Both the position numbers and the translations under genes were made by a program. Source: a virus (Duplodnaviria > Caudoviricetes). From it: DNA of 64,000 nt. The notes under the pieces were generated by a model, which saw nothing but the letters and a program-made list of their open reading frames with translations, had not been told where the DNA came from and did no database searches. Of this stretch, positions 614 to 35,468 are shown piece by piece. How positions within the stretch are numbered: the stretch's first letter is position 1; every line of letters begins with the position of its first letter. Location of the stretch: IMG/VR virus record IMGVR_UViG_3300028048_000113, positions 24,561-88,560 of that record, one strand, 5' to 3'.

Positions 614-1218
614 TGGATTATGATATTATTAAAGGCATTGAAGATTTAGCAAAAGCCGAACAGGCTGTTAAAGATTATCAGAAAGCTGTCAATGAGTATT
701 TTAAACTTACATTAAAAGAACTTATTTCATTTTTAGAAGCAAAAAAGCATCAAGATAATTTTGCTTTTGTTTATTATAATAAAATCTTCAGACTTAAAAA
801 GTCTGTATGGTCTAGAAATCCTATAGGAGATGACTTAAAGTATAAATACTTAGATACTATGGAAATTTCAGACATAAAATTTTATAAGAAATCTGTTAGC
901 TTAGAAATAAAATATGAGGCTAAAGTTAATGATAAGGAAATAACACAAACAGGTTATATCTTTCTTCCTTATGATCATATTGATGATTTTTCTCTTATAA
1001 GATTTTGTAATGTATATGAAGCTGAAAAAGCATATCAGGTTGGTCTTAAAAGAAAAATTAATAAAGAAAATGAAGAAAAAGAAAAACAGGCTATTATAGA
1101 CAAATATAAGAAAACTGTAAAAGAATATGAAGCAATGAAGAGAAATCTTGATTATTTAGAAAAGTTAGCTAAAGAAATGGGTTATAATCCTGAAGAGGAA
1201 AAGGAGGCTGAAAAATGA
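613..1218 (+). CDS. Hypothetical protein (coiled-coil ends)
   Basis: 201-aa ORF translationally coupled to both neighbours. Confidence 0.6.
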   Translation: MDYDIIKGIEDLAKAEQAVKDYQKAVNEYFKLTLKELISFLEAKKHQDNFAFVYYNKIFRLKKSVWSRNPIGDDLKYKYLDTMEISDIKFYKKSVSLEIKYEAKVNDKEITQTGYIFLPYDHIDDFSLIRFCNVYEAEKAYQVGLKRKINKENEEKEKQAIIDKYKKTVKEYEAMKRNLDYLEKLAKEMGYNPEEEKEAEK

Positions 1219-1754
1219 AGATTCTTGTATGTGTAACAGGTGGTATTGCTGCATATAAGGTTCCTGATCTTGTAAATGAATATTATAAGAGAGGAGACAC
1301 TGTTAAAGTAATGATGACAGATAATGCTTGTAAGTTTGTCACACCTCTTACTTTTCAGACTATGTCAAAGCAGTCAGTTATTACTGATACTTTTAATGAA
1401 GAAGATTCTGAAAAGATCAATCATATTTATTATGCACAGGAATATGATGCTATTATTGTAGCTCCTGCAACAGCAAATACAGTTGCAAAGATTGCACATG
1501 GAATTGCTGATAATGTAGTTACCTCAACCATTATTGCAGCAAATATTCCTGTTTTTGTTGTACCTTCTATGAATTCAGTAATGTATAATGATGAAGCATT
1601 TCAGGCAAATCTTGATATTCTTAAGAATAGATCTAAGTTTAAGATTATCTATCCTGATGAAGGACTTCTTGCTTGTGGTGTTACTGGTCCTGGTAAGTTT
1701 CCTCAGATTGATAGAATTATGGAAGAAGTAGATGCTTCTATGGAGGGATTGTAA
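1215..1754 (+). CDS. coaC: Phosphopantothenoylcysteine decarboxylase (HFCD flavoprotein, CoaC)
   Basis: VTGGIAAYK, APATANTVAKIAHGIADN, PSMNSVMY and GLLACG motifs typical of the CoaC/Dfp N-terminal domain. Confidence 0.9.
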   Translation: MKILVCVTGGIAAYKVPDLVNEYYKRGDTVKVMMTDNACKFVTPLTFQTMSKQSVITDTFNEEDSEKINHIYYAQEYDAIIVAPATANTVAKIAHGIADNVVTSTIIAANIPVFVVPSMNSVMYNDEAFQANLDILKNRSKFKIIYPDEGLLACGVTGPGKFPQIDRIMEEVDASMEGL

Positions 1755-1755
1755 T

Positions 1756-2145
1756 ATGGATGATGGTTGCTCTGTTCCTGTAATGATTATAGTAATTATT
1801 GCTGCCCTTATATTTTTAGTTATGTGTTCAAGCAATACTAATGCAAAAGCTGATTATGTAAGTGACTATAATAATGGTATTTGTCAGGACTGTGGAGGTA
1901 CTTTAATTTATCAGCAAGCAATTGGACATAAAGACTCTACAGCTTATATATTTCAGTGTGATAAATGTAATATAATAGAAATTGATTCATCTGATGTAAA
2001 GGATAAGGTTATCTATTTTACTAATGGAGAAACTAGACCTGCTACTACATATGCAACTGAAGAAGAATTTTCTGATGAATATAAGCAAAAGCATCAAGAT
2101 AATAATTATGATGTTTGCAATGGTTCATTTGATTATGAGGGTTAA
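1756..2145 (+). CDS. Membrane-anchored zinc-ribbon protein (paralog of 27243..27539)
   Basis: N-terminal hydrophobic helix, then CQDCG...CDKC. Start moved to ATG 1756 behind RBS GGAGGG. Confidence 0.55.
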   Translation: MDDGCSVPVMIIVIIAALIFLVMCSSNTNAKADYVSDYNNGICQDCGGTLIYQQAIGHKDSTAYIFQCDKCNIIEIDSSDVKDKVIYFTNGETRPATTYATEEEFSDEYKQKHQDNNYDVCNGSFDYEG

Positions 2146-2148
2146 AAT

Positions 2149-3222
2149 ATGAATATTTTATTTGTAGCTGGAACATGGAATAAGGAAGGTGGAAAACCTT
2201 CAGGACTTATTGAAAAAATGTATAATAGTCTTTTGTCTAAAATGAAGACAGAGGACCATATTGATTATTTTAATGGTGGTAATTATGATAATTTAGAGTC
2301 AATTATCAATACTGCTACTAATTATGATGTAATTTTTTGGATGGCCAATGTTCCTAATGATCTTCCTAAAGTTAGAGATGTAAAGAAAGCCAATCCTTAT
2401 GCTATTCTTATTGGCTCAAAAAGAAACATTGATAATGAATATTCTTTTGTTGATGTACTCAACAGAACACTTTTGCAGAGACATAATCTTAGTATCATGT
2501 TTTCTAAATCAAATTCTGAAAAGGAATATACAATGACTCTGTTTGATCCTCTTGGAACTGCTTGGTATGAGGGTAAGAGTACAGATGAATTAATGACTGC
2601 TCTTGTCAAAAGAGTAAGATTCTTGCTCACTACAACAAGAAAAAGAACATATCAGGTACCTGGAGATGTACTTATTCCTAACAATGAAGAGTTTATTAAA
2701 TATGTTAGAGAAGTTGCTGAAATCTTTCATGAAACAATTCAACACTCAGATGGTGTTACAAGATTTTTAGGTAATTCTTCATTTAGAGGTGAAGGTAATA
2801 TTATTTATGTATCTGAAAGAGATGTAGATAAGTCAACAATTGACATTGACCATTTTGTTGCTGCATTTACTGAGGATAATACAACATATTATTATGGAGA
2901 TAAGAAGCCTTCAAAGGACACAATTGTTCAGACATATCTTTATAAAGCATTTCCTAATATCAACTATATTGTACATTCTCATTGTTATACAGAAGGTGGA
3001 GCTTGGACAATGACACCTGTTCCTTGTGGCTCACTTGATGAGTTGACTGAGATTACTTATGCAATGAAAGACTATAATGATGATTATAGTGGTACATATT
3101 ATAAGTTTAATCTTAAGGGTCATGGATGCTTGATTCTTGGTTCTACTCTTGAGGAAATGAAGCAAACTAAATATATTACTAGAGAATTGCCTGAAAGAAT
3201 TTATTTACAAGAAAATATCTAA
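2149..3222 (+). CDS. Fusion: CoaB-like N-terminal domain plus class II aldolase/adducin domain
   Basis: C-half has GNSSFR, KPSKD, IVHSH and KGHG (Zn-binding His set of class II aldolases). N-half aligns by eye with the CoaB at 5184. Confidence 0.7.
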   Translation: MNILFVAGTWNKEGGKPSGLIEKMYNSLLSKMKTEDHIDYFNGGNYDNLESIINTATNYDVIFWMANVPNDLPKVRDVKKANPYAILIGSKRNIDNEYSFVDVLNRTLLQRHNLSIMFSKSNSEKEYTMTLFDPLGTAWYEGKSTDELMTALVKRVRFLLTTTRKRTYQVPGDVLIPNNEEFIKYVREVAEIFHETIQHSDGVTRFLGNSSFRGEGNIIYVSERDVDKSTIDIDHFVAAFTEDNTTYYYGDKKPSKDTIVQTYLYKAFPNINYIVHSHCYTEGGAWTMTPVPCGSLDELTEITYAMKDYNDDYSGTYYKFNLKGHGCLILGSTLEEMKQTKYITRELPERIYLQENI

Positions 3223-3256: not shown

Positions 3257-3712
3257 ATGATTGATGGAGAAATTAAAAGAGCTTTTGATTATCTGATGGA
3301 TTCAGCTTGTGCTACATGCAAGTATATTCCTAAGAGTGAAGAATGCAAGAAAGTAAAAAGTAGTTGTGGTAATTATAATGCCTTGGCTGCAATTGCAAAA
3401 GCTGTATCTGAAAGAGATGGCTATAAGGAAAAAGCAGAAATACTTGAAAAAGATCTTGATACCCTTATGGCCTCAGAAAATTTCTTTAACCATCTTGAAA
3501 ATGTTGACACTGAACTCTATTGGAGAAAATACAAATCAGAGTGGCCTAAGAAGAATGGTGAAAAAGTATTTGTAGTTTCTAAAAATGGCACAATAGGTGA
3601 TGGTATTTATTGTGACAAAACAGTTACTAGATATATTAAGACTATGATTTGTGATGAAGATGACATTGAGGCATGGATGCCAATGCCTAAATATAAACAG
3701 GAGAATAACTAA
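3257..3712 (+). CDS. Hypothetical phage protein with DUF551-like C-terminus
   Basis: Ends ...AWMPMPKY, resembling the phage DUF551 WMPLP motif. Confidence 0.45.
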   Translation: MIDGEIKRAFDYLMDSACATCKYIPKSEECKKVKSSCGNYNALAAIAKAVSERDGYKEKAEILEKDLDTLMASENFFNHLENVDTELYWRKYKSEWPKKNGEKVFVVSKNGTIGDGIYCDKTVTRYIKTMICDEDDIEAWMPMPKYKQENN

Positions 3713-3714
3713 AC

Positions 3715-4149
3715 ATGAAGTATGAATTTGAAGTTGATGGTAAGAAGTTTAATGTAATTTTTGACATTGATGAACTTCTTAAGGATTTTAGTAAGAGTGA
3801 CTTTATCACTTTTTATGAGCCTGAGTCATTTGTTAAGTATGGAAATATTCCTGAATATGGTGATCCATATATGACAGAAACAGAATATCTGATTGCAATC
3901 AATGATTATGTTGAGAGTATTAAGGCTCTTGATAATAAAGATAAGCTCAAGTCAATGGTTGAAAAGTGGCCTAAGAAGAAGAATGGTTATCTTAATGGTA
4001 GAAATGTTGACTATCTCTGTGAATCAGATGTATGTGAATATATTTGTGAATGGCACAATACCTGGATTTATGATACAGTAAAGGCTGTTGCAAGGGATGA
4101 AAAGACCATTGAGATTATTAGCTATAAGAAGACAGACACACCTGGTTAA
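3715..4149 (+). CDS. Hypothetical protein
   Basis: 144-aa ORF with RBS GGAGA. Confidence 0.6.
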   Translation: MKYEFEVDGKKFNVIFDIDELLKDFSKSDFITFYEPESFVKYGNIPEYGDPYMTETEYLIAINDYVESIKALDNKDKLKSMVEKWPKKKNGYLNGRNVDYLCESDVCEYICEWHNTWIYDTVKAVARDEKTIEIISYKKTDTPG

Positions 4150-4160
4150 GGAGAAATGGT

Positions 4161-4580
4161 ATGGGAGTATCAGTATATGCTAATCATTCAACTTTAAGTT
4201 TTGATATGGGTGGTGGAGGCTTTTTCAATATTAGAAAAAATATTGCTTATGCCCTCAATGAAGACTTAGGTGAAGTTTATGAATCTCTTCTTAGATGTCA
4301 TTATAAGGCAGATTTTGAAGAGCATGATAGAAAAGCAAATAAGATTATAGCTGATAATAATCTTGAGGAGTATGCAGATGTCTTAGATTTTCTTTATGCA
4401 TCTGATATTGAAGGTAAGATTTCTCATAAGACTTGTAAAAGAATTTATGATCTTATTAAAGATATAGATTTTGGAGATAAGTGTTTTAGATATGCTGCTC
4501 AAGCTCATAATGACTATGAGGAATTTAAGCAGTTCTTACTAGAATGTTATTCACATCATAGAAAAATGAGGTGGTCATAA
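4161..4580 (+). CDS. Hypothetical protein
   Basis: 139-aa ORF with RBS AAGGAG. Confidence 0.6.
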   Translation: MGVSVYANHSTLSFDMGGGGFFNIRKNIAYALNEDLGEVYESLLRCHYKADFEEHDRKANKIIADNNLEEYADVLDFLYASDIEGKISHKTCKRIYDLIKDIDFGDKCFRYAAQAHNDYEEFKQFLLECYSHHRKMRWS

Positions 4581-4948
4581 TGGATATGTATAATCAGTTA
4601 AAAAAGACTGAAAAGGTACTTAGAGATTATGATAATCTACGTTTTAAAGTAGATTTGATTATTCATAAGTATTTTGATAAGGACTTTAAAATAGATAGAA
4701 TTTATTATGATGAAGGTTTTGGAACAATAGAGGTTCTTGGCTTTAATGATTATAAGCCAACTTATACTTTTCCTGCTGAGTGTTTATTTTTACCAAATGA
4801 TGAGGTAGAAGAGGTAATACTAAAACATAAGAAAAAGGTAGAAGAATTTGATAAGCTTTTAAATGAAGCAGCTGATCTTATAGCAAAAACAGAAAAGCTA
4901 TTAAAAGAAATGGATAATGAAGATGGAGAAGATGAGGTAATAAAATGA
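4580..4948 (+). CDS. Hypothetical protein
   Basis: TAATG overlap with the previous stop suggests a start at 4580. Confidence 0.55.
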   Translation: MDMYNQLKKTEKVLRDYDNLRFKVDLIIHKYFDKDFKIDRIYYDEGFGTIEVLGFNDYKPTYTFPAECLFLPNDEVEEVILKHKKKVEEFDKLLNEAADLIAKTEKLLKEMDNEDGEDEVIK

Positions 4949-5172
4949 CAGTTCAGGAATTAATTGATGAATTAGAAAAGATACCTAATAAACAACTCAA
5001 AGTAAAACTTGAGAATGGTATGTTGACTAAGATTGAACTTAAAGATATTAAGACTATGGATTCTTATGAAAAGATGGTAGTTTTATCTGATAGTAAAAAT
5101 CCTAATGACTGGGCTGAACATATTAAGAATGGTACATTTACTAAAGATTTCTTTGGTGGATTAAATTTATAA
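4945..5172 (+). CDS. Hypothetical phage protein
   Basis: MTVQELIDELEKIP N-terminus is common in small phage proteins; ATGA overlap. Confidence 0.55.
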   Translation: MTVQELIDELEKIPNKQLKVKLENGMLTKIELKDIKTMDSYEKMVVLSDSKNPNDWAEHIKNGTFTKDFFGGLNL

Positions 5173-5183
5173 GGGGAAATAAA

Positions 5184-5930
5184 ATGAATATTGTAATTAC
5201 AGCTGGTGGAACAACAGAACATATTGATGCAGTTAGAGGTATTACTAATACAGGTACAGGAACCCTTGCTTCAATTATTGCTTCTGGTCTTCAGGAACAG
5301 GCTGAAGTAGAAAATATTTTTTACATTCATACTGCAAAGGCAAAGAAACCTGCTTCAGATGAAAAGATTATCTATATTGAGGCAGATGATACTAATTCAG
5401 TTGCAACTGCAGTTGAAAAGGTACTTAAGGAAAATAAGATTGATTGGTTCATTCATGCAATGGCCATTTCTGATTACTATGTAGATTATGTAACTACAGC
5501 TCAAAAGATTACTGATTCTATTTCTCAGTTTGAGAATACTGGAATTACTAATATTATTCTTGAAGGAAAGAATAGATTGGATAATTCTAGAAAGCTTTCT
5601 TCTGATGAGGATAATCTTGTTGTAGTACTTAAGAAGACACCTAAGATTATTGGCATGATTAAGAGACTTTCTCCTAATACAAAACTTATTGGTTTTAAGC
5701 TTCTCAATAATGTAACTGATGAAGAGCTTAGAAATGTAGCATATAAGCTTCTTCTTAAGAATAACTGTGATTATGTTGTAGCCAATGACTCTTCTAAGAT
5801 TACAGCTGACAAGCATGAGGCTATTTTTGTTAATAAGTCTGGTGATATTATTGGTAAGGTTTATGATAATAATCAGATTGCTGGAAGTATTGCCAATATT
5901 GTTATCTGGAATGAAAGAAAGACATATTAA
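5184..5930 (+). CDS. coaB: Phosphopantothenate--cysteine ligase (monofunctional CoaB)
   Basis: ITAGGTTEHIDAVRGITNTGTG, HAMAISDY, KTPKII, LIGFKLL and YVVAND motifs. Confidence 0.9.
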   Translation: MNIVITAGGTTEHIDAVRGITNTGTGTLASIIASGLQEQAEVENIFYIHTAKAKKPASDEKIIYIEADDTNSVATAVEKVLKENKIDWFIHAMAISDYYVDYVTTAQKITDSISQFENTGITNIILEGKNRLDNSRKLSSDEDNLVVVLKKTPKIIGMIKRLSPNTKLIGFKLLNNVTDEELRNVAYKLLLKNNCDYVVANDSSKITADKHEAIFVNKSGDIIGKVYDNNQIAGSIANIVIWNERKTY

Positions 5931-10549: not shown

Positions 10550-11092
10550 ATGAAAAATATAGTAAGATTAGCTGGTAAAAAAATTGATCTCTGTGTTTTT
10601 AGAACAGATCCAGAGGCAATTGAATTATATACCAAATGGATAAATGACAAATCTATCAATATGTGGGTTGGTCATAATGTTGTGTGTCAAAGTTTTAGTG
10701 AAACTGAAGATTGGGCAAAAAGTGATAAGAGTAAGATAAGATTTAATATAGTCAACAAGGAAGGTAAACTTGTTGGTAATTGTGATTGTGGAAGAAGACA
10801 TTATGCTTCATTTAATACTGTTGGTTTAGGTATTTATATTGGTGAAGCTGATGGTAGAAATAAGGGTTATGGAACTGAAGCTATCAAAATGTTAGTCAAG
10901 TTTGCTTTTACTGAATTAAATGCTCATAGAGTTACACTTAATGTAGTTGCTGATAATGTTAGAGCAATTAAGTGTTATACTAAAGCTGGTTTTACTCAAA
11001 ATGGTGTAGCACATGATGAAGTCTACTATAATGGAAAATTTCATGATTTAATTTCAATGGAAATTTTAAGAGATAACTGGGAGGAAGAGTAA
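10550..11092 (+). CDS. GNAT N-acetyltransferase, RimJ/RimL family
   Basis: LGIYIGEADGRNKGYGTEA, AHRVTLNV, NVRAIKCYTKAGF. Confidence 0.88.
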   Translation: MKNIVRLAGKKIDLCVFRTDPEAIELYTKWINDKSINMWVGHNVVCQSFSETEDWAKSDKSKIRFNIVNKEGKLVGNCDCGRRHYASFNTVGLGIYIGEADGRNKGYGTEAIKMLVKFAFTELNAHRVTLNVVADNVRAIKCYTKAGFTQNGVAHDEVYYNGKFHDLISMEILRDNWEEE

Positions 11093-15419: not shown

Positions 15420-15812
15420 ATGTATCTAGAAATTACAGAAGAAGAGCTTAATAATAGAATAAGACACATGGATTACTTGTTCTATTTCAAGAGTCAAGGT
15501 GGACATTTTGGATCAACTGAAGAGGTCTTAATGATCTTTGCTGTCCAGAATAAATTTGCTATCTACAATGGAAAGATGGATTATCTTTCTTTGATGTCAT
15601 CTTGGCAATATGAAAAGTTTGTTAAGAAAATTACAAGATATACAAAGAACTGGAAAGTTCATGACAATAAAAACTGGGCTGGAGATAACTATAACATAGT
15701 TATTAACTTTGATGGTGCTCCAAGGTCTTACTGTGGAAATATTTTATGTAAGAATTGGAAAAAGTTTTATAGATTAGTAGATTGTATTAGAAAAGGAATG
15801 ACAATTGTATGA
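15420..15812 (+). CDS. Hypothetical protein
   Basis: 130 aa, downstream of promoter 15359-15388. Confidence 0.55.
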   Translation: MYLEITEEELNNRIRHMDYLFYFKSQGGHFGSTEEVLMIFAVQNKFAIYNGKMDYLSLMSSWQYEKFVKKITRYTKNWKVHDNKNWAGDNYNIVINFDGAPRSYCGNILCKNWKKFYRLVDCIRKGMTIV

Positions 15813-16606
15813 GTGCATTAGATAAGAGAATGAAGGAATTTTATGAGTTTATCCCAAAAACAAAACTCATGAGAAGATGTCCAGTTGCTATTAGAATTGA
15901 TGGTAAGGCATTCCACACATTTACTAGAGGTTTTAAGAAGCCTTTTGATAAAATTATGATTGAAACTATGCAGGAAACAACCAAGTATCTTTGTGAGAAT
16001 ATTCAGGGTTGTGTTCTTGGTTATACACAGTCAGATGAGATTACCTTGATCCTTATTGATTATAAGAATCTTGAGAGTTCAGCTTGGTTTGACTATGAAG
16101 TTCAGAAGATTTGTAGTGTTGCTGCATCTATGGCAACCATGCAATTTAATAGATTGTTTGCTAAAAAGGTTGCTATGTATAAGGATAAGTTAGATGATCT
16201 CAGAGCAATGAGAATTATTACTGATACAGATATTGCATTAGGTCTTGCTTATGAGAAGTCACTTGAGAATGGTGCAATGTTTGATGCTAGATGTTTTAAT
16301 ATTCCTAAGGATGAGGTTTGTAATCTTATCTATTGGAGACAGCAGGATGCTTCAAGAAATAGTATTCAGATGCTGGCTAGAACATATTATTCATCTAAGC
16401 AGCTTCAGGGTAAGAAAAATACTATGATTCAGGATATGCTCTTTAAAGACTTTGGTATCAATTGGAATGATTGTCCAGTAGTTGAGAAGAGAGGTACAGC
16501 TTGCATTAAGGATGAAGATGGCAAGTGGTTTATTGATGAGAATATGCCTATTCTTAGAGCCAAAGACAGACAGTATGTTGAGAAACTCATCTATCTAGAC
16601 AAATGA
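15809..16606 (+). CDS. thg1: tRNA(His) guanylyltransferase / Thg1-like protein
   Basis: IRIDGKAFHTFT, GYTQSDEIT, FDAR, WRQQDASRNSI. Confidence 0.9.
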   Translation: MSALDKRMKEFYEFIPKTKLMRRCPVAIRIDGKAFHTFTRGFKKPFDKIMIETMQETTKYLCENIQGCVLGYTQSDEITLILIDYKNLESSAWFDYEVQKICSVAASMATMQFNRLFAKKVAMYKDKLDDLRAMRIITDTDIALGLAYEKSLENGAMFDARCFNIPKDEVCNLIYWRQQDASRNSIQMLARTYYSSKQLQGKKNTMIQDMLFKDFGINWNDCPVVEKRGTACIKDEDGKWFIDENMPILRAKDRQYVEKLIYLDK

Positions 16607-18554: not shown

Positions 18555-19532
18555 ATGACTGATCAAGATTTGGTCAAGAAAATCTCCAAGATAGTTATTG
18601 GAGCATTAGCAGGTATAGTAGCAATCATACTTGTATGTAATTGCTTCTATAAAGTAGATGAGCAACATAATGCTGTACTTACTCAGTTTGGTACAGTACT
18701 TAAGGTTGACACAGCTGGTTTTTACTTTAAAGCACCTTGGCAGGTTGCAAGAAAAGTAGATATGACCACTCATGGTACACCTATTGGTTATTCAATTGAG
18801 AATGGTCAAAATATTCCAAATACAGATGATGGTATAATGATTACAGAAGATTACAACTTCTTAAACATTGACTTCTATATGGAATATGCAGTAGTTGATC
18901 CAGTAGCTTATTTGTATAATACAGAAAATCCTGAACTTGTTTTGAGAAACATTGCACAAGCAAATATCAGAACAGTTGTTTCAAATTATACAGTTGATGA
19001 AGCTATGACAACTGCAAAGGGACAGATTCAGGCAGATATTAAGCAAGCCATTATGGATGAGCTTGATAAGAATAATATTGGTCTTAAGATTATCAATATT
19101 ACAATTCAGGACTCAGAACCACCTACAGATACAATTAAGGCTGCATTCCAGTCAGTAGAAAATGCTAAGCAGGGTGCAGACACAGCAATGAATAAGGCTA
19201 AGGAATATCAGAATAGCCAGCTTCCTGCAGCACAGGCTGAAGCAGATAATATTATTCAGCAGGCTGAGGCTGATAAACAGGCAAGAATTGCAGAGGCTCA
19301 AGGTCAGGTAGAAAGATTTAATAAAATCTATGAGGAATATAAGTTATTCCCTACTGTAACAAAAGCAAGATTATTCTATGAAAGAATGGAAAATGTACTT
19401 CCTGGTTGTAAGATTATTATTACAGATGGTACTACATCCACAGTATATCCTGTAGATTCTTTTACAAAGAATACTCCACCTTATAAGCCAGTTGAAACAA
19501 CAACTACCACAACTGATGGAGGTAATGGCTAA
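18555..19532 (+). CDS. hflK: FtsH protease modulator HflK (SPFH/band 7)
   Basis: TM helix, AVLTQFG, ITEDYN, IQDSEPP, AFQSV, ARLFYERMENVL. Confidence 0.85.
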   Translation: MTDQDLVKKISKIVIGALAGIVAIILVCNCFYKVDEQHNAVLTQFGTVLKVDTAGFYFKAPWQVARKVDMTTHGTPIGYSIENGQNIPNTDDGIMITEDYNFLNIDFYMEYAVVDPVAYLYNTENPELVLRNIAQANIRTVVSNYTVDEAMTTAKGQIQADIKQAIMDELDKNNIGLKIINITIQDSEPPTDTIKAAFQSVENAKQGADTAMNKAKEYQNSQLPAAQAEADNIIQQAEADKQARIAEAQGQVERFNKIYEEYKLFPTVTKARLFYERMENVLPGCKIIITDGTTSTVYPVDSFTKNTPPYKPVETTTTTTDGGNG

Positions 19533-19533
19533 T

Positions 19534-20415
19534 ATGAGAAAGAATAAAATTTTAATTGGTGTATTTGCAGGTGTGGCAGTACTTATTGGATTGATTGTAT
19601 TCTTTGCATCAGTCTATACAGTACATACAAAGGAATCTGCAATTGTAGTTAGACTTGGTAAGGCACAAGCAACAGTTACAGAAACTGGAATGCATGCACA
19701 TGCTCCATTCATTGAATCTACAGTAAAGGTTTATATGGGTGAGAACTTGTATGATATGCCTAAGTCAGATGTAATTACTTCAGACAAGAAATCAATGATT
19801 GCTGATAATTATGTTATTTGGGAAGTAACAGATGCTCTCAAATATTACCAAACACTTGGTGGTGTTAAGAATAGAGCTGAGGAAAGAGTTGAGGCTGCAG
19901 TATACAATGCAACCAAGAATACAATTTCTTCAATGACTCAGGAAGAAATTATTGCTGCAAGAGGTATGACTCTTACAAATGCAATTACATCAGCATCTAA
20001 CTCAGATATTGCACAGTATGGTATTAATATTAAGATTGCTGAAATTAAGGCACTTGACCTTCCTGATAACAACAAGGAAGCTGTCTATAACAGAATGATC
20101 TCTGAGAGACAGAATATTGCAGCTGGTTACACAGCTCAGGGTAATAAGGATGCTCAGATTGTCATTAATGATACTGACAAGCAAGCTTCTATTATTAGGG
20201 CTGATGCTGAGGCAAAAGCAGCAATTATTAGAGCTGAAGGTGAAGCAGAGTACATGAAGATCCTTTCAGCAGCATATAATGATCCTGACAAGGCAGCATT
20301 CTATAACTATCTTAGAGGATTAGATGCACTTGAAGCTCTTGCAAAAGCAGACTCCACAATTATCCTTGATAAGGACTCTGATTATGCAAAGATCCTTTAT
20401 GGTTATTACACATAA
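19534..20415 (+). CDS. hflC: FtsH protease modulator HflC (SPFH/band 7)
   Basis: TM helix, IVVRLGK, ITSDKKSM, VYNRMISER, AEAKA, FYNYLRGLDA. Confidence 0.85.
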   Translation: MRKNKILIGVFAGVAVLIGLIVFFASVYTVHTKESAIVVRLGKAQATVTETGMHAHAPFIESTVKVYMGENLYDMPKSDVITSDKKSMIADNYVIWEVTDALKYYQTLGGVKNRAEERVEAAVYNATKNTISSMTQEEIIAARGMTLTNAITSASNSDIAQYGINIKIAEIKALDLPDNNKEAVYNRMISERQNIAAGYTAQGNKDAQIVINDTDKQASIIRADAEAKAAIIRAEGEAEYMKILSAAYNDPDKAAFYNYLRGLDALEALAKADSTIILDKDSDYAKILYGYYT

Positions 20416-21167: not shown

Positions 21168-23429
21168 ATGACAATTCCTGAATTATTTGAGAAAGAATTG
21201 AAGTTTTGGATTGAAGCAAATGAAAAGTTCCTGGGTGTCACTCCTATCGATGACACCTGGGACTATGCTGATATTCAAGCTTCAATTGACGAATCATGTA
21301 AGAAGTTCTGGAACGTTGAAAAACCTTGTAAGTTAGCAACTAACTTAAACAAAGGACTTCTTAATAAAGACGCTAGTCTCCAGGTAAAAAATTCATATAT
21401 GCTTAAGTTAAACTTCTATAACATGTGTATAGATGTTTTTGGCGATTATGGACCTGAATATGGACTCAAAAAGATCTGCGCAATACCTACTCCTTGCAAT
21501 GATCTTTGCTGGATTATCAATAGAACACATTACGTCACAAGAGTAGCTGCAACTAAAGATATTTATGGTTGCGTAAGTAAGGAAAGTTACAACCTCATTA
21601 AGGGAGAGGGTTGGAATTATACTATTGATACTGATACTTTTGATTGTGTTGTTACAAAAGATGAATATAAGTTCAATCCTACATTGGATGAAATCTTCGA
21701 TAATCACCTTTCAAGACGTTCAAAGTATTTGTTAGAAGCAGTTCTTGGTGAACCTGTTACAAAGGAAAACTTCAAGGCAGGTTTAAGAAAGCTTCCTACT
21801 TTCGACAAATCTTCTATTTTTAATTATAAATTTACGCGTATGGAATATTTTGAGGATGTTGTACTCAATTCTAAGAAGTATGCACAGCCTACAAAAGATA
21901 TTCTTCTTGGCGTTAATACAATCATTTCTTCAAAGACAAGACAGTGGACAAGTACTAAGGAGCATATTGATGGTTGTTTAGTACGTTCAGAGTCTAAGAT
22001 CTTTGCACTTGAAAACTTTAGAACATGTGCAAACTTCTTCAATATTGAAAGAAAAGATAACCCTAATATTAATGCTGCAGCTGCAAGCAGTGTACACTCT
22101 AAGTTTACCTATAATGATGCTAATGGTTTCTTTGATTCATTCAAGACCGTCACATCAAAATCAGCTGGTAGACAGAGATTATTGCTTGATAATGTAGTTA
22201 CAAAACATGGTCTTCTTTGGATTGTTGATGAAGATGGCACTATGCATAATATGTTTGAATATTTGGATATGCCTCAGGATGAGAGACTTTCTTGTTTGTC
22301 AAAGGCTCCTTTCTGCAATAACGATAAGCCTAAGAGAATCATGATGAATGCTAAGATGACTTCACAGGCAGTTCCTCTTGCTGAAGAAATTGATGAACTT
22401 ACTCATAGAATTACTGCAAGGGTTGGATTTACTGATATTGAAGGTTATACAGCAGCTGACTCAATCATTATTTCAGAGTCATTTGCAAAGAGACTTAGAA
22501 CATACGATCAGGAAATTCTCTACTTAGATAAGAATTCAAACCTTTATAAGGCTCTTACAGAAACTGAACCTGTAGTATTTGATCTCACATTACTTAAGGC
22601 GGTTTTCCCTAGAAAGAATGATGCAATTCTTCTTTCATTTGAGAATGTCAAGATTGATCACATTGATCACGTTGATGACTATAGAGCAAGAGTATTTATT
22701 ACTTGGGAAATTCCTTTCAGACTTGGCGATAAGATTACAAATCTTCATGGTGCTAAGGGTACAGTTGGTTTAATCTTACCTGATGATAAGATGCCTAGAC
22801 TTACCAAGAAAGTTGGTAATATGAAGGCTGGTCCTTTGGAAATAATTATTTCAGGTTATTCAGCTATGAGACGTGGATCTCTTGGTCAGATCTTTGAGGC
22901 ATGGTCTCTTGCTACTGGAAATACCGATGTTGACTTTGCTGCAGATGCTATTGCAAAACATGGCAAAGCAATGGAAACATATAGTAAGAATTCAATAGTT
23001 GAATATAATGGTGAAACACAAGTCATTCCTGTAGGTATTAACTACATTATGAGATTGTATCACCATGCATCAACCAAAGTTTCTTGTTCCTCTGCTGATT
23101 TTGCATATAAGAGAACATTAAGATTTGGTGAGATGGAAAAACTTAATCTTGTAGCTAATGATTGTCCTAATATCCTTAAGGAACTTGGTATTAGATCAGT
23201 TACTAAGTATATTGGTTCTCATAAGCTTATTAACCAGATTGAAGAGACAAGAGAGCTTCCTAAGAATGCTCATATGTCACTCCAGTTTGTAGAAATTCTT
23301 AAATCAATGGGATATAAGTTAACTGTAAGTAAGCTTTCAGATAATTATAGTGGAACAGATGAGAAAGATGATGATAACTTGAATGCTATCATCAAGAAGG
23401 AGGTCAAGTCAAATGAAGATGACAATTGA
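21168..23429 (+). CDS. rpoB: Multisubunit RNA polymerase beta-like subunit (minimal)
   Basis: KRIMMNAKMTSQAVP, GYTAADSIIISE, GDKITNLHGAKGTV, MP, RRGSLGQIFE, GINYIMRLYH, RFGEME correspond in order to the conserved RpoB blocks. Confidence 0.88.
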   Translation: MTIPELFEKELKFWIEANEKFLGVTPIDDTWDYADIQASIDESCKKFWNVEKPCKLATNLNKGLLNKDASLQVKNSYMLKLNFYNMCIDVFGDYGPEYGLKKICAIPTPCNDLCWIINRTHYVTRVAATKDIYGCVSKESYNLIKGEGWNYTIDTDTFDCVVTKDEYKFNPTLDEIFDNHLSRRSKYLLEAVLGEPVTKENFKAGLRKLPTFDKSSIFNYKFTRMEYFEDVVLNSKKYAQPTKDILLGVNTIISSKTRQWTSTKEHIDGCLVRSESKIFALENFRTCANFFNIERKDNPNINAAAASSVHSKFTYNDANGFFDSFKTVTSKSAGRQRLLLDNVVTKHGLLWIVDEDGTMHNMFEYLDMPQDERLSCLSKAPFCNNDKPKRIMMNAKMTSQAVPLAEEIDELTHRITARVGFTDIEGYTAADSIIISESFAKRLRTYDQEILYLDKNSNLYKALTETEPVVFDLTLLKAVFPRKNDAILLSFENVKIDHIDHVDDYRARVFITWEIPFRLGDKITNLHGAKGTVGLILPDDKMPRLTKKVGNMKAGPLEIIISGYSAMRRGSLGQIFEAWSLATGNTDVDFAADAIAKHGKAMETYSKNSIVEYNGETQVIPVGINYIMRLYHHASTKVSCSSADFAYKRTLRFGEMEKLNLVANDCPNILKELGIRSVTKYIGSHKLINQIEETRELPKNAHMSLQFVEILKSMGYKLTVSKLSDNYSGTDEKDDDNLNAIIKKEVKSNEDDN

Positions 23430-24639
23430 GCCTATTAACATTATTGATGATCCTGCAAATCAGGTTACGTCAGATAAGATCTTTCCTCCTAGAAAGATCA
23501 AGGATAAAGATGGTAACTATCTTTTCAATGATGAAGGTATCTTCTCAGAAAAAATTTTCGGTAAGTTTGGTCACTGTAGATGTGGTAAGTTAAGAAAGCC
23601 TGGCTACTGTGAAGAATGTGGATGCAGAGTTCTCAATAAGAGAAAGATGCCTGACTTCTTTATTAAGTTTAGTTTTGACCTTCCTAATAGAGTTATTAAC
23701 TACGGAAAGTTCTCAAACAAGAAGCTTTTAGAGGATCTTCTCTACTATAGAGGATTCATGTATGAAGGAAAGTACATTGAATTTGATCTTAAGAATGATA
23801 TGTCAGTGTATGAACAGGATAAGATCCTTTTTGGTAAGGAAGCAATCCTTTCAATAGGAGTACCTGAGGAATGGTATAATGGTGCAGTTCATAGACTTAT
23901 TTCTATTCCTCATACCTCATTCAGAAAGATTACTTTCCAGAATGATAACTATTTCATTGGTGACCTCAATAACCTTTATATTGATATGATCCGTCTTAAT
24001 AATAAGTATGATAAGCTTAAGAAGAATTCAAAGCTTAACATTCTTAATGAACTCAATATCAGATTTACAATCTGCAATGATCTCACTGTTCTTTATGAAC
24101 AGCTCTTCCAGATCCTTGCTAGAAATCATAGAAATGTTATTGATAATGAGCTTAAGGGTCAGCCTGAAACAGGTATGATTAGAGCAGTTATGACAAATAA
24201 CTTCAGTCTTGATGAGGACACAATTCTTATTGGTAAGTATTTTATTGAGACACTCTATCCTAAATTCTTTAGAGAATATATGATAGACGGTGAACTTGAT
24301 ATTAAGGCAATTAACAAGAAACTTAAAGATGAAAAGTATTTAGTACTCTTTAATAGACAGCCTACCATTGGTGCTAAGTCAATTATTGCAATGCACCCTG
24401 TATTCTCTGAATTAGATACAGAACAGTTTGTTATTCAGGCAAATCCTATTGTATATGATGGACTTGCTGCAGACGTTGATGGTGACTCATTGAATGTAAT
24501 TGCTCTCTATTCTAAGGAAGCTTGTGAAGAAGCTGAAAAGCTCTTACCTAGCAAGAATTATATTGAGGGTTCAAATGGTTCTATCAGAAATGGTATACTT
24601 GATGAGTTTAAGTATGTAGAAACATTATTAGGAGAATAA
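23413..24639 (+). CDS. rpoC: RNA polymerase beta-prime N-terminal half (catalytic)
   Basis: GIFSEKIFG + CRCG..CEECG zinc finger, LFNRQPT, AADVDGD (NADFDGD equivalent). Confidence 0.88.
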   Translation: MKMTIEPINIIDDPANQVTSDKIFPPRKIKDKDGNYLFNDEGIFSEKIFGKFGHCRCGKLRKPGYCEECGCRVLNKRKMPDFFIKFSFDLPNRVINYGKFSNKKLLEDLLYYRGFMYEGKYIEFDLKNDMSVYEQDKILFGKEAILSIGVPEEWYNGAVHRLISIPHTSFRKITFQNDNYFIGDLNNLYIDMIRLNNKYDKLKKNSKLNILNELNIRFTICNDLTVLYEQLFQILARNHRNVIDNELKGQPETGMIRAVMTNNFSLDEDTILIGKYFIETLYPKFFREYMIDGELDIKAINKKLKDEKYLVLFNRQPTIGAKSIIAMHPVFSELDTEQFVIQANPIVYDGLAADVDGDSLNVIALYSKEACEEAEKLLPSKNYIEGSNGSIRNGILDEFKYVETLLGE

Positions 24640-32165: not shown

Positions 32166-32345
32166 ATGAGCTTTATTAAAATTGGTGAGAATTTGGTAAA
32201 TGTAAAGAATATTGCATATATTTCAGAGGATGAGCTTAATGAAAATCAATCAGTAATTTATTTTATTGGTGGTAGTAAGTTGAGACTTCCTAAGACATTG
32301 GTAGCTAGTGTTTCTTATGAACTTGAAAAGGGGTTAGTACAGTGA
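32166..32345 (+). CDS. 59-aa hypothetical protein (not in ORF track)
   Basis: MSFIKIGENLVNVKNIAYI...; RBS AAGGAG; stop overlaps the coaD GTG. Confidence 0.55.
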   Translation: MSFIKIGENLVNVKNIAYISEDELNENQSVIYFIGGSKLRLPKTLVASVSYELEKGLVQ

Positions 32346-32815
32346 AAGTAGGATTTTATGCAGGATCATTTGATCCTTTTACAAATGGACATCTTCAGGT
32401 AGTAAAGAAAGCATGTGAGCTTTTTGATGTAGTAATAATTGGAATTGGTACAAATTCTGCAAAAGCTAGAAGATTTGATAAGCTTAAGATGGTCACTGCT
32501 ATTAAGGAAGTAATGGAAAAAGAAGGCCTTGATGAAAAGGTAATGGTTATTACTTATGAAGGAATGACAACAAGTATTGCTAAAAAGTATAATGCAAATT
32601 ATCTCATTAGAGGCATTAGAAATGGCATTGACTATCAGTATGAAGAGAACATTGCCTCTATGAATCAAGAAGTTGATGGACTTGATACTATTTACTTTAG
32701 AGCTGGAGAGCTTGGTAATGTAAGTTCAAGTATGGTTATGGAACTTCTTAAAAATGATAGAGATGTCTCTAAGTATCTTCCTGAGCCAATCTACAATCTT
32801 GTTAAAACTAACTAA
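32342..32815 (+). CDS. coaD: Pantetheine-phosphate adenylyltransferase
   Basis: YAGSFDPFTNGH, LIRGIR, DYQYE, VSSSMV, DVSKYLP. Confidence 0.92.
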   Translation: MKVGFYAGSFDPFTNGHLQVVKKACELFDVVIIGIGTNSAKARRFDKLKMVTAIKEVMEKEGLDEKVMVITYEGMTTSIAKKYNANYLIRGIRNGIDYQYEENIASMNQEVDGLDTIYFRAGELGNVSSSMVMELLKNDRDVSKYLPEPIYNLVKTN

Positions 32816-34445: not shown

Positions 34446-35468
34446 ATGAAAATTACTAATGCTGTAGAAAAAATTATCAATAAGGAAACCAAGGATAAGG
34501 AAATAGATCTGGATAAGTATTCAGAGATTATGGCTGATCTCACAGGTGATGAATATGTTGAACTTATCAACAAGCTTAGTGAGTTGGGTTATACAGTAAG
34601 TAGTAAGGAAGAGGAAGAGGATGAAGAGGCTGATGCCCTTATCAATAGTAATGACATTAAGTCAATTATCTCAAGATTCCCTCTTCTCACAAAGGAACAG
34701 GAACTTGACTTAGCTAATAAGAAGCTTGAGGGTGATTTGGATGCTAAAGAGCTTCTTATCAATTCAAATCTGAGATTGGTTGTCTCAATTGTAAAGAAGT
34801 ACCTCAATAGAGGTGTTGAATTCCCTGACCTGTTTAGTGCTGGCTGCACTGGACTTACAATGGCAGTTGATAAGTTTGACCCTTCCAAGGGCTACAAGCT
34901 CTCAACATTTGCCACATGGTGGATTAGACAGCAGATTACAAGTGAAATCTCAACTATGGGTAGAATGATTAGAATACCTGTAAATACTGCTCAGAAGGTA
35001 AATGAGGTTAAGAAGGCTAAGAGAGCCCTTGAAATTGATCTTAATAGAGAGCCTTCCCTTGAGGAAGTTGCAGAAAGACTTGGTATTACTGAGGAAAAGG
35101 TAATTGAACTCCTTAGTTATGATATTCAGCCTATCTCCTATGATCAGGCCATATCCAGTGACTCAGATGATACCCTTCTGGACTTCATAAGCACAGAATT
35201 GGTTGATGAGGATGAAACCTCAGACATTATTAAGGCCCTTGATGAGATTGAACTCAAGAAGGAAGTCAGAACCCTTATGAGAACTCTGACCCCTAGAGAG
35301 AAGCAGGTTATCCTTCTCAGAAAGGGATTTATCAATAATAAAGTTTATAAGCTCCAGGAAATTGGTGAAATCTTGGGTGTAACTAAGCAGATGGTTAAGT
35401 CCATTGAAGAAAAGGCCACCCATAAGATGAAGATTGAATCAGTTGTCATCCAGATGAGTGAAAACTAA
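34446..35468 (+). CDS. RpoD/SigA-like sigma-70 factor (phage-encoded)
   Basis: PLLTKEQE, NSNLRLVVSIVKKYLNRG, KFDPSKGYKLSTFATWWIRQ, RMIRIPV, REPSLEEVA, LTPREKQVI, region 4.2 HTH. Confidence 0.92.
   Translation: MKITNAVEKIINKETKDKEIDLDKYSEIMADLTGDEYVELINKLSELGYTVSSKEEEEDEEADALINSNDIKSIISRFPLLTKEQELDLANKKLEGDLDAKELLINSNLRLVVSIVKKYLNRGVEFPDLFSAGCTGLTMAVDKFDPSKGYKLSTFATWWIRQQITSEISTMGRMIRIPVNTAQKVNEVKKAKRALEIDLNREPSLEEVAERLGITEEKVIELLSYDIQPISYDQAISSDSDDTLLDFISTELVDEDETSDIIKALDEIELKKEVRTLMRTLTPREKQVILLRKGFINNKVYKLQEIGEILGVTKQMVKSIEEKATHKMKIESVVIQMSEN

Follow-up and report, generated by a model that had tools for sequence, protein, structure and literature searches.

The gene that lies between coaC and coaB in the 64,000-nucleotide stretch of phage DNA analysed here (the window) encodes a two-domain protein, which we call X, that joins a CoaB-like core to a class II aldolase domain. 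The same gene stands inside the coaC-coaB operon of gut bacteria, and X is therefore probably a partner in the synthesis of coenzyme A (CoA). Going one step further, X may be an active, metal-dependent enzyme working with the CoaB/CoaC segment of the pathway, a reading that we favour while placing it somewhat below an even chance. A preliminary description of the sequence had noticed this fusion between the two CoA genes, and both of its domains and both flanking genes were recovered in our analysis.

Results

The features of the phage cluster are collected in Table 1. The best NCBIfam matches of the coaC product, TIGR00521 (coaBC, 211 bits) and TIGR02113 (coaC_strep, 180 bits), fall just under their cut-offs, and its translation shows the INHI His, PSMNSVMY and ACGVTGPG motifs; the models that match coaB (NF005231, 224 bits; TIGR02114, 197 bits) are likewise slightly under cut-off. 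The small ORF between coaC and X is absent from bacterial coaC/coaB operons, and a GAGGG Shine-Dalgarno-like box stands 10 nt 5' of the start of the X ORF. No coaE was found in the 88.5-kb phage record, which is only about 37% complete, so that this gene possibly lies outside the known part; the CoA steps that the record does encode end at dephospho-CoA.

Table 1. CoA genes of the phage, X and the two domains of X, with positions in the window.
Feature	Position	Strand	Basis
coaC, stand-alone streptococcal-type phosphopantothenoylcysteine decarboxylase	1215..1754	+	PF02441 Flavoprotein, E 2.8e-33
Small ORF, 137 aa, between coaC and X	1732..2145	+	Hydrophobic N-terminus, CxxC pairs
X, 357 aa, two domains (CoaB core and class II aldolase)	2149..3222	+	ORF, AF2 model, homologues
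X N-domain, residues 1-163, predicted pared-down PPCS/CoaB fold	2149..2637	+	VIA structure comparison, conserved residues
X C-domain, residues 173-345, predicted class II aldolase, AraD-like	2665..3183	+	PF00596, AraD profile match, VIA
coaB, stand-alone phosphopantothenate-cysteine ligase	5184..5930	+	PF04127 DFP, E 1.5e-23; GGTTEHIDAVRGITN signature intact
coaD, pantetheine-phosphate adenylyltransferase	32342..32815	+	TIGR01510, 139.2 bits (cut-off 103.3); PF01467, E 3e-15

The AF2 model of X (pLDDT 91.4, pTM 0.88) has two domains, of which the first is best matched, by VIA comparison, by CoaB/PPCS (2gk4, Z 16.1, rmsd 2.5 Å over 155 aligned residues). More than 20 further PPCS entries follow at Z 13-15, whereas an unbiased search through 48,161 chains gave Z values of at most 10 and about 115 aligned residues for unrelated folds. 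The predicted domain thus has the CoaB-type Rossmann-like fold that had been proposed for it, and on this model it derives from the CoaB (PPCS) fold. Similarity at the level of sequence is marginal. Pfam DFP gave no match at E <=0.1 in the N-domain, no coaB model was among the NCBIfam matches of X, and no canonical CoaB appeared among the best 150 matches of an N-domain profile search. The block-by-block alignment with CoaB that had been put forward earlier receives weak support: greedy local hhalign returned a co-linear alignment of 160 columns (P 0.003), whose best block is the same LPKVRDVKKANPYAILIGSK / TPKIIGMIKRLSPNTKLIGFK pair, but a BLASTP comparison of the N-domain with the CoaB of the window gave no match and default hhalign gave a probability of 3%; over the hhalign comparisons with neighbouring CoaBs the probabilities were 3-11%.

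In place of the CTP-binding signature GGTxExIDxVRxIxNxSxG, X has the consensus GGTWDxxGGKxSG, about 10 residues shorter and without the E, D, R and N positions that are invariant in the neighbouring CoaBs; the loss of the catalytic signature GGTxExIDxVRxITN, already remarked on before, is thus borne out. From the fourth strand to the PK block there are about 8 residues in X and about 55 in the window's CoaB, the whole domain measures 160 aa as compared with 229-248 aa in CoaB, and the dimerisation beta-sandwich and KxKK flap are missing. In CoaB this flap closes over the partner subunit's active site (PMC7794376). With the CTP signature and the insert of about 55 residues (dimerisation region and flap) both gone, X is left without the usual CTP-binding elements and the usual means of acyl-cytidylate formation. 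The N-domain retains a beta1-alpha1 loop that is both glycine-rich and basic, as well as a Lys/Asn motif co-linear with the PK..K..P..GFK block of CoaB, and G8, G15, N42-G-G44, W64, K79, S90-K91-x-N93, D133-P-L-G136, R155 and R164 are invariant. Eighteen N-domain positions are invariant among homologues down to 38% identity, including those of phages of 29-52% GC, which points to a working binding site and argues against a decayed remnant.

The C-terminal half had been described as a class II aldolase with its set of metal-binding histidines, and so it appears here. Residues 188-308 match Pfam Aldolase_II (PF00596) at 40.6 bits against a cutoff of 22.2 (E 3.2e-10), residues 173-345 of the AF2 model match the folds of FucA and AraD at Z 13-14.6 (VIA), and a PDB profile match to AraD (1jdi, E 1.3e-6) places KPSKDT..HSHC of X on KPSSDT..HTHS. 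The putative metal ligands D257, H276, H278 and H325 are invariant in 43 homologues, with D257 aligned to the Asp of the AraD KPSSDT and HSH to HTH. Also conserved are G208-N209-x-S211, K253-P-S255-K-D257, R224, C279, P292-C-G294, E298 and E301, of which Glu298 and Glu301 are candidate acid/base residues, and Lys228, Lys253 and Lys256 around the predicted site are invariant or nearly so. The phosphate pocket keeps N209, S211 and S255; R224-D225 replace the Ser/Thr-Gly loop and K256 replaces the second Ser. As modelled, then, the C-domain is a catalytic unit with the class II aldolase fold of the AraD/FucA type, and it keeps its predicted metal site.

These residues bear on two other explanations. 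Because the catalytic elements of CoaB are gone, the main role of X could be to regulate or scaffold CoaB/CoaC or another CoA enzyme without catalysis, as a pseudo-CoaB sensor of a pathway intermediate or as a metabolon assembler, and there are precedents in heteromeric PPCS and in moonlighting or scaffolding paralogues of the CoA pathway (PMC12985681; PMC7794376). The invariance, over about 660 clusters, of the metal ligands and nearby polar residues of the aldolase domain points instead to catalysis, and X is also present where there is no CoaB or CoaC to regulate, in some bacteria and in phage genomes that are complete or nearly so; we regard such a role as very unlikely. Alternatively, X may be a sugar-phosphate enzyme of AraD/MtnB type (an epimerase, an aldolase or a dehydratase) in pentose, nucleotide or thio-sugar salvage, with the N-domain as a nucleotide- or phosphate-binding regulatory module and with no tie to coaBC beyond a shared LysR regulon for sulphur or cofactor salvage. 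AraD and MtnB are the nearest sequence relatives, and the putative metal and acid/base residues are kept, but the canonical phosphate loop has become Arg-Asp and the equivalog scores lie far under cut-off (AraD TIGR00760, 29.3 versus 389 bits; MtnB NF006672, 32.2 versus 226 bits). We consider this explanation possible, if on the unlikely side, and its other points are taken up below.

Gene order ties X to the CoA genes. X adjoins coaC and coaB in 17 of 27 bacterial loci, from reduced-genome gut Bacilli, and adjoins coaC/coaB in all six further metagenome contigs (6/6), in the order coaC-X-coaB or coaC-coaB-X, the genes overlapping or lying few bases apart. Since coaB was found in only 18 of 121 related genomes, these counts support a functional link between X and CoaB/CoaC, and the co-occurrence of X homologues with coaB/coaC, on which the preliminary description had staked its proposal, proves to be far above chance. 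The operons are accompanied by a divergently transcribed, orthologous LysR regulator (61-71% identity). In two genomes (G001 and G094) the coaB of the operon is the only one of the genome, and in another (G003) coaE and coaD lie 5 kb from a coaC-X'-X-coaB cluster. A sugar-phosphate enzyme would leave unexplained both the tight, often overlapping placement with coaC/coaB in 23 loci and the specific CoaB origin of the extra domain. More in keeping with it, about ten bacterial loci have X with only the LysR regulator and without coaBC, and occasional operon members include the serine O-acetyltransferase CysE and NudE-like NUDIX hydrolases, enzymes that act on ADP compounds and set sugar phosphates free.

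CoaB/CoaC-type genes are accompanied by class II aldolase-like modules in other forms too, which we count in favour of a role in this pathway. A stand-alone aldolase-like protein (c19) occurs in coaC-coaB-c19-aminotransferase operons with the same LysR orthologue; its similarity is statistically not significant. Fusions of a CoaC-like flavoprotein to an aldolase domain also exist. They belong to another aldolase subfamily than X (hhalign 70% over 68 columns), their aldolase domain being more canonical (PTSE, TxG). Both points weigh against this argument. Another operon partner (c2) has a nitrilase-superfamily fold and was rejected as a relative of X (hhalign probability 0.2%).

The link of X to coaB/coaC is not obligatory. 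Five IMG/VR phage loci carry X without coaBC, and no DFP or Flavoprotein match was found in Lak-A2 and two phage records (estimated to be 90-100% complete) that carry X. The occurrence of X without coaBC in bacteria and phages, and the frequent lack of coaD/coaE in carriers, count against our favoured reading. The suggestion that X marks a non-canonical branch next to coaC/coaB, which might make or salvage a precursor resembling pantoate or pantothenate or a nucleotide-activated metabolite, is thus supported in one part: synteny speaks for the link to CoaB/CoaC, but X also goes without these genes.

The family comprises 626 full-length homologues, and the N-domain profile retrieved 664 cluster representatives; at 50% identity there are thus about 660 clusters, almost all of the X architecture and mostly viral, including those of Lak megaphages; among the 120 matches listed there was no named protein. 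The mostly viral distribution, with X alone in phages of very different hosts, again suits a sugar-phosphate enzyme. A tree places the window's X inside the bacterial coaC-X-coaB clade (support 100/100), with "alone" and "operon" contexts intermixed among close relatives. PHROGs gave no informative family for X, the ESM Atlas returned only its own clusters, all unnamed, and the first 8 kb of the window had no match in a DNA search of 50,697 phage records. We found no description of the architecture of X in the literature, no relevant literature on phage CoA biosynthesis and, in full-text literature, nothing on a class II aldolase together with phosphopantothenoylcysteine, coaB or pantothenate kinase (PanK) and nothing on a "type IV pantothenate kinase".

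Some phage contexts raise the idea that X takes part in phage RNA repair, its targets being RNA or tRNA ends or nucleotide-linked caps (dephospho-CoA-capped RNA, the CCA end, for instance). In three phage loci a T4 RnlA-type RNA ligase follows X at a distance of 1-3 genes downstream, one X homologue also carries a fused PTH2 peptidyl-tRNA hydrolase domain, and the CoA steps encoded by the phage stop at dephospho-CoA. Two of the three ligase loci are close relatives, so that the three are not independent; the fusions are isolated cases in a varied set of C-terminal tails; the bacterial operons hold nothing that points to RNA; and coaE may simply lie beyond the 37%-complete phage record. We find this reading extremely unlikely. 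The C-terminal extensions of longer X homologues were rejected as a Rosetta-stone signal because the tails are heterogeneous.

A further explanation starts from the missing kinase. X might replace or bypass PanK and deliver 4'-phosphopantothenate or 4'-phosphopantetheine to CoaB or CoaD; on the phage side, X would then be an unregulated version of the rate-limiting step. No type I PanK above cut-off or short PanK-like kinase was found in any of the 27 carrier genomes, 12 of which have both coaD and coaE and lack only PanK. Short PanK-like kinases are present in 9 of 32 coaD-positive genomes of the sampled order, none of them with X or coaB, and X standing alone in phages would suit an auxiliary gene that serves a flux-controlling step. 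CoaB-like domains also belong to the ribokinase-like fold class (SCOP). Against this, X has no Walker-type or ribokinase signature and no match to the models of PanK types I-III (TIGR00554, PF03630, PF03309), and we know of no kinase with either fold in the form that it takes in X. PanK is, moreover, missing across the whole order, also from genomes without X: type I was found in none of 121 sampled genomes of the gut lineage and type III in none of five carriers or of the 121 related genomes, while the type II search, negative in five carriers, matched no control genome either and counts for little. Fourteen coaD-positive genomes lack X, coaB and a PanK-like gene alike, and nine coaB-positive genomes with the nitrilase-like partner are also without PanK. 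The complementarity of X and PanK (p about 0.03 before allowing for relatedness) is consequently weak. Across carriers coaD was found in 12 of 27 and coaE in 14 of 27, about half showing neither, so that the product of a PanK would have nowhere to go there; most of the 121 gut-lineage genomes show no coaB, coaD or coaE. As a non-homologous replacement proposed from gene presence and absence only, the kinase idea is distinctly unlikely, and we would equally be surprised if X were a fourth, non-homologous supply of 4'-phosphopantothenate or 4'-phosphopantetheine spread by huge phages.

Discussion

How X might act with CoaB and CoaC can be outlined. We suspect that the C-domain handles a phosphorylated alpha-hydroxy-carbonyl compound, since the 4-phosphopantoyl group and L-ribulose 5-phosphate, the substrate of AraD, share a phosphate-CH2-C-CH(OH)-C(=O) spacing. 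Since C3' of 4-phosphopantoyl bears no hydroxyl, however, neither a retro-aldol nor an AraD-type reaction could take place there as such, and it counts against our proposal that we know of no class II aldolase-fold enzyme that works on pantothenate derivatives. The N-domain would no longer be able to form an acyl-cytidylate and may have become a ligand-binding module for a phosphopantothenate- or pantetheine-type compound or a cytidine nucleotide. Alternatively, it may serve for docking and in this way couple the aldolase-fold site with CoaB/CoaC. CoaB activity requires partner contacts and the CoA enzymes of yeast form a metabolon (PMC7794376), and in Plasmodium PPCS paralogues form a heteromeric PPCS (PMC12985681). 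Docking on CoaB by the canonical dimer interface is doubtful given that X lacks the dimerisation insert. As for the phage, its coaC-X-coaB genes and coaD may have been taken from, or be shared with, a reduced-genome Bacilli host, and the cassette could raise or restore the supply of 4'-phosphopantetheine or dephospho-CoA during infection.

CoA synthesis, a drug target, is viewed as a closed pathway of five steps. If our proposal is correct, the third gene of coaC-coaB operons represents an unrecognised step, partner or control of this pathway, and about 660 sequence clusters would gain an annotation. X also bears on the gap in the 121 gut-lineage genomes, which show no type I or III PanK and mostly no coaB, coaD or coaE; were the kinase reading true, X would fill the place of the missing PanK and, as an auxiliary gene of huge phages, release CoA synthesis in the host from its main point of control. 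X is widely carried by large phages, Lak megaphages included, and at least one phage lineage with a coaC-X-coaB-coaD set is a clear case of phage-borne cofactor metabolism.

Among known systems, CoaB/PPCS itself (2gk4 from S. pneumoniae, 1u7z from E. coli) resembles residues 1-163 of X in its Rossmann-like core (Z 13-16, rmsd 2.5-2.8 Å, 144-158 residues), with the PK..K..P..G-x-K block co-linear and with a genuine coaB and coaC as gene neighbours of X. X differs in having no HMM-level similarity, no CTP signature and no insert of about 55 residues, in the size of the domain (160 aa versus about 230 in CoaB) and in its fusion to a second, predicted catalytic domain. AraD/FucA share with X the fold, the GN-S motif, HxH followed by HG some 47 residues on, and the residues of a three-His metal site with an Asp as fourth ligand, as in AraD (KPSSDT / KPSKDT), whereas X has Arg224-Asp225 for the Ser/Thr-Gly loop, Lys256 for Ser, and an additional invariant Cys279 and Pro-Cys-Gly 292-294; it lacks the C-terminal helices of FucA and carries a fused CoaB-like N-domain. 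The heteromeric PPCS of Plasmodium falciparum (PMC12985681) sets a precedent for a pair of PPCS-fold proteins that work jointly in one organism, but both partners are full-length and make up one PPCS enzyme, while X lacks the dimerisation region. The bifunctional CoaBC (Dfp) likewise fuses a CoaB-fold domain to another enzyme of the same operon and is associated with CoaC; there a catalytically complete CoaB domain is joined to the flavoprotein decarboxylase, whereas X pairs an aldolase-fold domain with a CoaB-fold domain devoid of its catalytic elements.

Phage gene content and the coaC-X-coaB cassette

The window, which is AT-rich (about 30% G+C) and coded nearly entirely on the plus strand, makes up the right-hand 64 kb of an IMG/VR virus record of 88.5 kb (37% complete by CheckV). 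It comes from a large phage and encodes a DnaB-type helicase and a primase besides the RNA polymerase, sigma-70 and other phage genes tabulated below. The gene for X, the two-domain protein under study, starts 395 nt after coaC ends, and coaB follows it at a distance of 1.96 kb. With coaD, the phage covers three consecutive steps of coenzyme A synthesis, the last product being dephospho-CoA; a search of the 88.5-kb record, itself only 37% complete, yielded no coaE. Small phage ORFs with no family match separate coaC, X and coaB (window 1732-2145 and 3257-5172), and the ORF at 4161-4580, between X and coaB, matches phrog_19831. Bacterial coaC/coaB/X operons, in contrast to the phage cassette, have no such inserts.

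Features of the window and of the compared bacterial and phage loci (L numbers)
Feature	Location	Strand	Remarks
coaC	window 1215-1754		stand-alone, streptococcal-type, motifs intact
X	window 2149-3222	+	357 aa; GAGGG box 10 nt upstream
coaB	window 5184-5930		stand-alone, streptococcal-type, motifs intact
GNAT acetyltransferase	window 10550-11092
Thg1-like tRNA-His guanylyltransferase homologue	window 15809-16606
SPFH/Band-7 proteins	window 18555-20415		two in tandem
RNA polymerase beta/beta'-like subunits	window 21168-24639		split
coaD (pantetheine-phosphate adenylyltransferase)	window 32342-32815	+	score above curated cut-off
sigma-70 factor	window 34446-35468		full
NudE-like NUDIX hydrolases and serine O-acetyltransferase	L061:4283-5734, L063:8085-9035, L062:5800-6321
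285-aa protein and coaB	L044-L055		LysR-divergent two-gene operon, no adjacent coaC
285-aa protein, example	L046:4914-5762	+
coaB adjacent to it	L046:5762-6544
coaC-coaB, then c19, PLP aminotransferase	L042:3119-6736	-
coaB, then c19, methyltransferase, PLP aminotransferase	L043:1438-4500	+	no coaC
Flavoprotein-aldolase fusions	L037:2887-4032 (+), L038:3934-5019 (-), L039:4071-5174 (-)		beside SAM methyltransferase
T4 RnlA-type RNA ligase	L056:12299-13465		scanned, E 3.6e-22
T4 RnlA-type RNA ligase	L057:11635-12813, L058:11189-12289		judged by similar N-termini

X joins a CoaB-like domain to a class II aldolase domain

Pfam gave no match in the first 170 residues of X. In an AlphaFold2 model built from 43 homologues (pLDDT 91.4, pTM 0.88), residues 1-163 superpose best on Streptococcus pneumoniae CoaB (2gk4; Z 16.1, rmsd 2.5 Å, 155 aligned residues), and more than 20 further structures of PPCS, the CoaB enzyme, superpose with Z of 13-15. 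PPCS again ranked first in a wide scan of 48,161 representative chains, independent of Foldseek, in which the next unrelated folds, CheY-like receivers, reached Z of at most 10 over about 115 aligned residues. The likeness to CoaB is therefore specific, beyond generic Rossmann similarity, and the predicted structure supports the CoaB fold claimed in the preliminary description. The likeness is faint in sequence. Of the block-by-block alignment on which that claim was based, the PK block (PK..VK..NP...LIGSK versus PK..IK..SP...LIGFK) stands as the best block of a greedy local hhalign comparison that is co-linear over 160 columns (P 0.003), but BLASTP of the N-domain against the window's CoaB found no match and default hhalign gave a probability of only 3%. 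The CoaB catalytic signature is indeed lost, as had been proposed: where the neighbouring CoaBs invariably have the CTP signature GGTxExIDxVRxITN, X has a shorter GGTWDxxGG(K/R)xSG loop. Also missing is a CoaB insert of about 55 residues, which bears the KxKK flap and the dimerisation sandwich (PMC7794376).

The proposed class II aldolase identity of the C-terminal half was borne out by Pfam Aldolase_II (residues 188-308, E 3.2e-10) and by superposition of modeled residues 173-345 on FucA, AraD and relatives (Z 13-14.6). D257, H276, H278, C279, PCG 292-294, E298, E301 and H325-G326 are invariant across the homologues. In the profile alignment, KPSKDT...HSHC in X is paired with AraD's KPSSDT...HTHS, so that Asp is the fourth metal ligand in both. 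X therefore has two folds and a retained metal site, and its N-domain surface is strongly constrained without the CTP signature or the flap/dimerisation insert. That it acts mainly as a regulatory pseudo-CoaB seems to us distinctly unlikely.

A search of 5.8 billion proteins returned 626 full-length homologues, and a profile of the N-domain alone found representatives of 664 clusters (50% identity), mostly proteins of 345-400 aa with the same architecture; its top 150 matches included no canonical CoaB. Eighteen N-domain positions are invariant in homologues down to 38% identity, and the invariant residues include G8, G15, NGG 42-44, W64, K79, S90-K91-x-N93, DPLG 133-136, R155 and R164. Given so many full-length homologues and invariant residues in both domains, we rejected the idea that X is a decayed CoaB remnant. 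None of the 120 listed homologues has an informative name, the single source that names one giving 'hypothetical protein'. In the literature searched we found no description of this architecture, or of its placement in coaBC operons and huge phages; both domains belong to known superfamilies, and their combination is apparently undescribed.

Linkage to coaC and coaB

Scanning one genome per species yielded 27 bacterial X loci, all in uncultured gut Bacilli, 'Tenericutes' or Erysipelotrichaceae-type genomes of 0.6-1.9 Mb, Clostridium sp. CAG:465 among them. Asked whether they co-occur with coaB and coaC, the homologues proved to adjoin both directly in 17 of the 27 loci (coaC-coaB-X or coaC-X-coaB) and in all six further metagenome contigs retrieved by exact-protein look-up, so the association is frequent, though not obligatory. 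Of 121 genomes sampled in the order to which CAG:465 belongs, a gut lineage with genomes of 0.9-2.2 Mb, only 18 have coaB (32 have coaD and 39 coaE), which places the adjacency far beyond chance. A divergent LysR regulator always faces the operon and is better conserved across loci (61-71% identity) than X itself. In a maximum-likelihood tree, the window's X and its closest phage relative fall inside the bacterial coaC-X-coaB clade (support 100/100), and the phage and host cassettes thus share ancestry. Tandem X paralogues occur in two loci. The operon occasionally includes a NudE-like NUDIX hydrolase that carries a long N-terminal extension (two loci) or, in one case, a serine O-acetyltransferase (CysE/EpsC) scoring above cut-off.

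Other coaB operons of the order have different partners. Of the 14 other coaB-positive genomes examined, 12 have coaB directly behind the gene of a 285-aa protein that has no Pfam match, is modeled (pLDDT 86) as a nitrilase-superfamily amidase fold and bears the motifs FPEM, K and LNCMEY. Two genomes have coaB-c19-aminotransferase operons, one with coaC first, beside the same LysR orthologue (about 69% identity); c19, of 224 aa, has aldolase-like GN, HxH and HG motifs, a similarity that is visible but not significant. Three genomes encode separate fusions (361-381 aa) in which a CoaC-like flavoprotein domain precedes an aldolase half of a more canonical class II subfamily than that of X (PTSE, HGHC). 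This recurrence of aldolase-fold modules near CoaB/CoaC-type genes supports functional coupling, even though they are not orthologous to X.

X outside coaBC operons and the pantothenate kinase question

About ten bacterial loci have X and a LysR gene, the same regulator, with no coaBC within 8 kb, and these copies intermix with operon-borne ones in the tree. X also stands alone in five IMG/VR phage loci (29-52% G+C). Whole-record searches found no match to DFP or Flavoprotein, the Pfam families of CoaB and CoaC, in Lak-A2 or in either of two records, of 144 kb (90% complete) and 608 kb (100% complete); in LR756500, coaB lies 360 kb from X. Just 12 of the 27 carrier genomes have coaD and 14 have coaE. 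These distributions limit the CoA reading, and that X is instead a CoA-independent sugar-phosphate enzyme within a shared regulon, while doubtful, deserves serious consideration. In three phage loci a gene for a T4 RnlA-type RNA ligase follows the stand-alone X at a distance of 1-3 genes. We regard a role for X at RNA ends as very improbable.

Twelve carriers have coaB, coaC, coaD and coaE and miss only pantothenate kinase (PanK), as would fit X being its replacement. No type I PanK above cut-off or short PanK-like kinase was found in any of the 27 carriers, and no type III PanK in five carriers; type II was likewise not found in five carriers, a null that counts for little because the same search was positive in no control genome. 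Such a bypass nevertheless appears unlikely, since neither fold of X is known as a kinase and the complementarity is weak: PanK is missing throughout the order, with types I and III found in none of the 121 genomes. The 32 coaD-positive genomes comprise nine with a short PanK-like kinase, nine with coaB plus another partner and 14 with none.

A possible partner enzyme of CoaB and CoaC

The tight operon linkage of X with coaC and coaB, and the common origin of its phage and bacterial cassettes, lead us to favor, tentatively, a role for X as a partner enzyme of this CoA segment. The N-domain might bind a related ligand or nucleotide, or dock onto CoaB/CoaC, and the C-domain would be the catalytic unit for a phosphorylated alpha-hydroxy-carbonyl compound. 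One parallel is that the 4-phosphopantoyl group has the same phosphate-CH2-C-CH(OH)-C(=O) spacing as the L-ribulose 5-phosphate of AraD. X differs from AraD and FucA in that Arg224-Asp225 stand where a Ser/Thr-Gly phosphate loop is usual, and Lys256 replaces one Ser.
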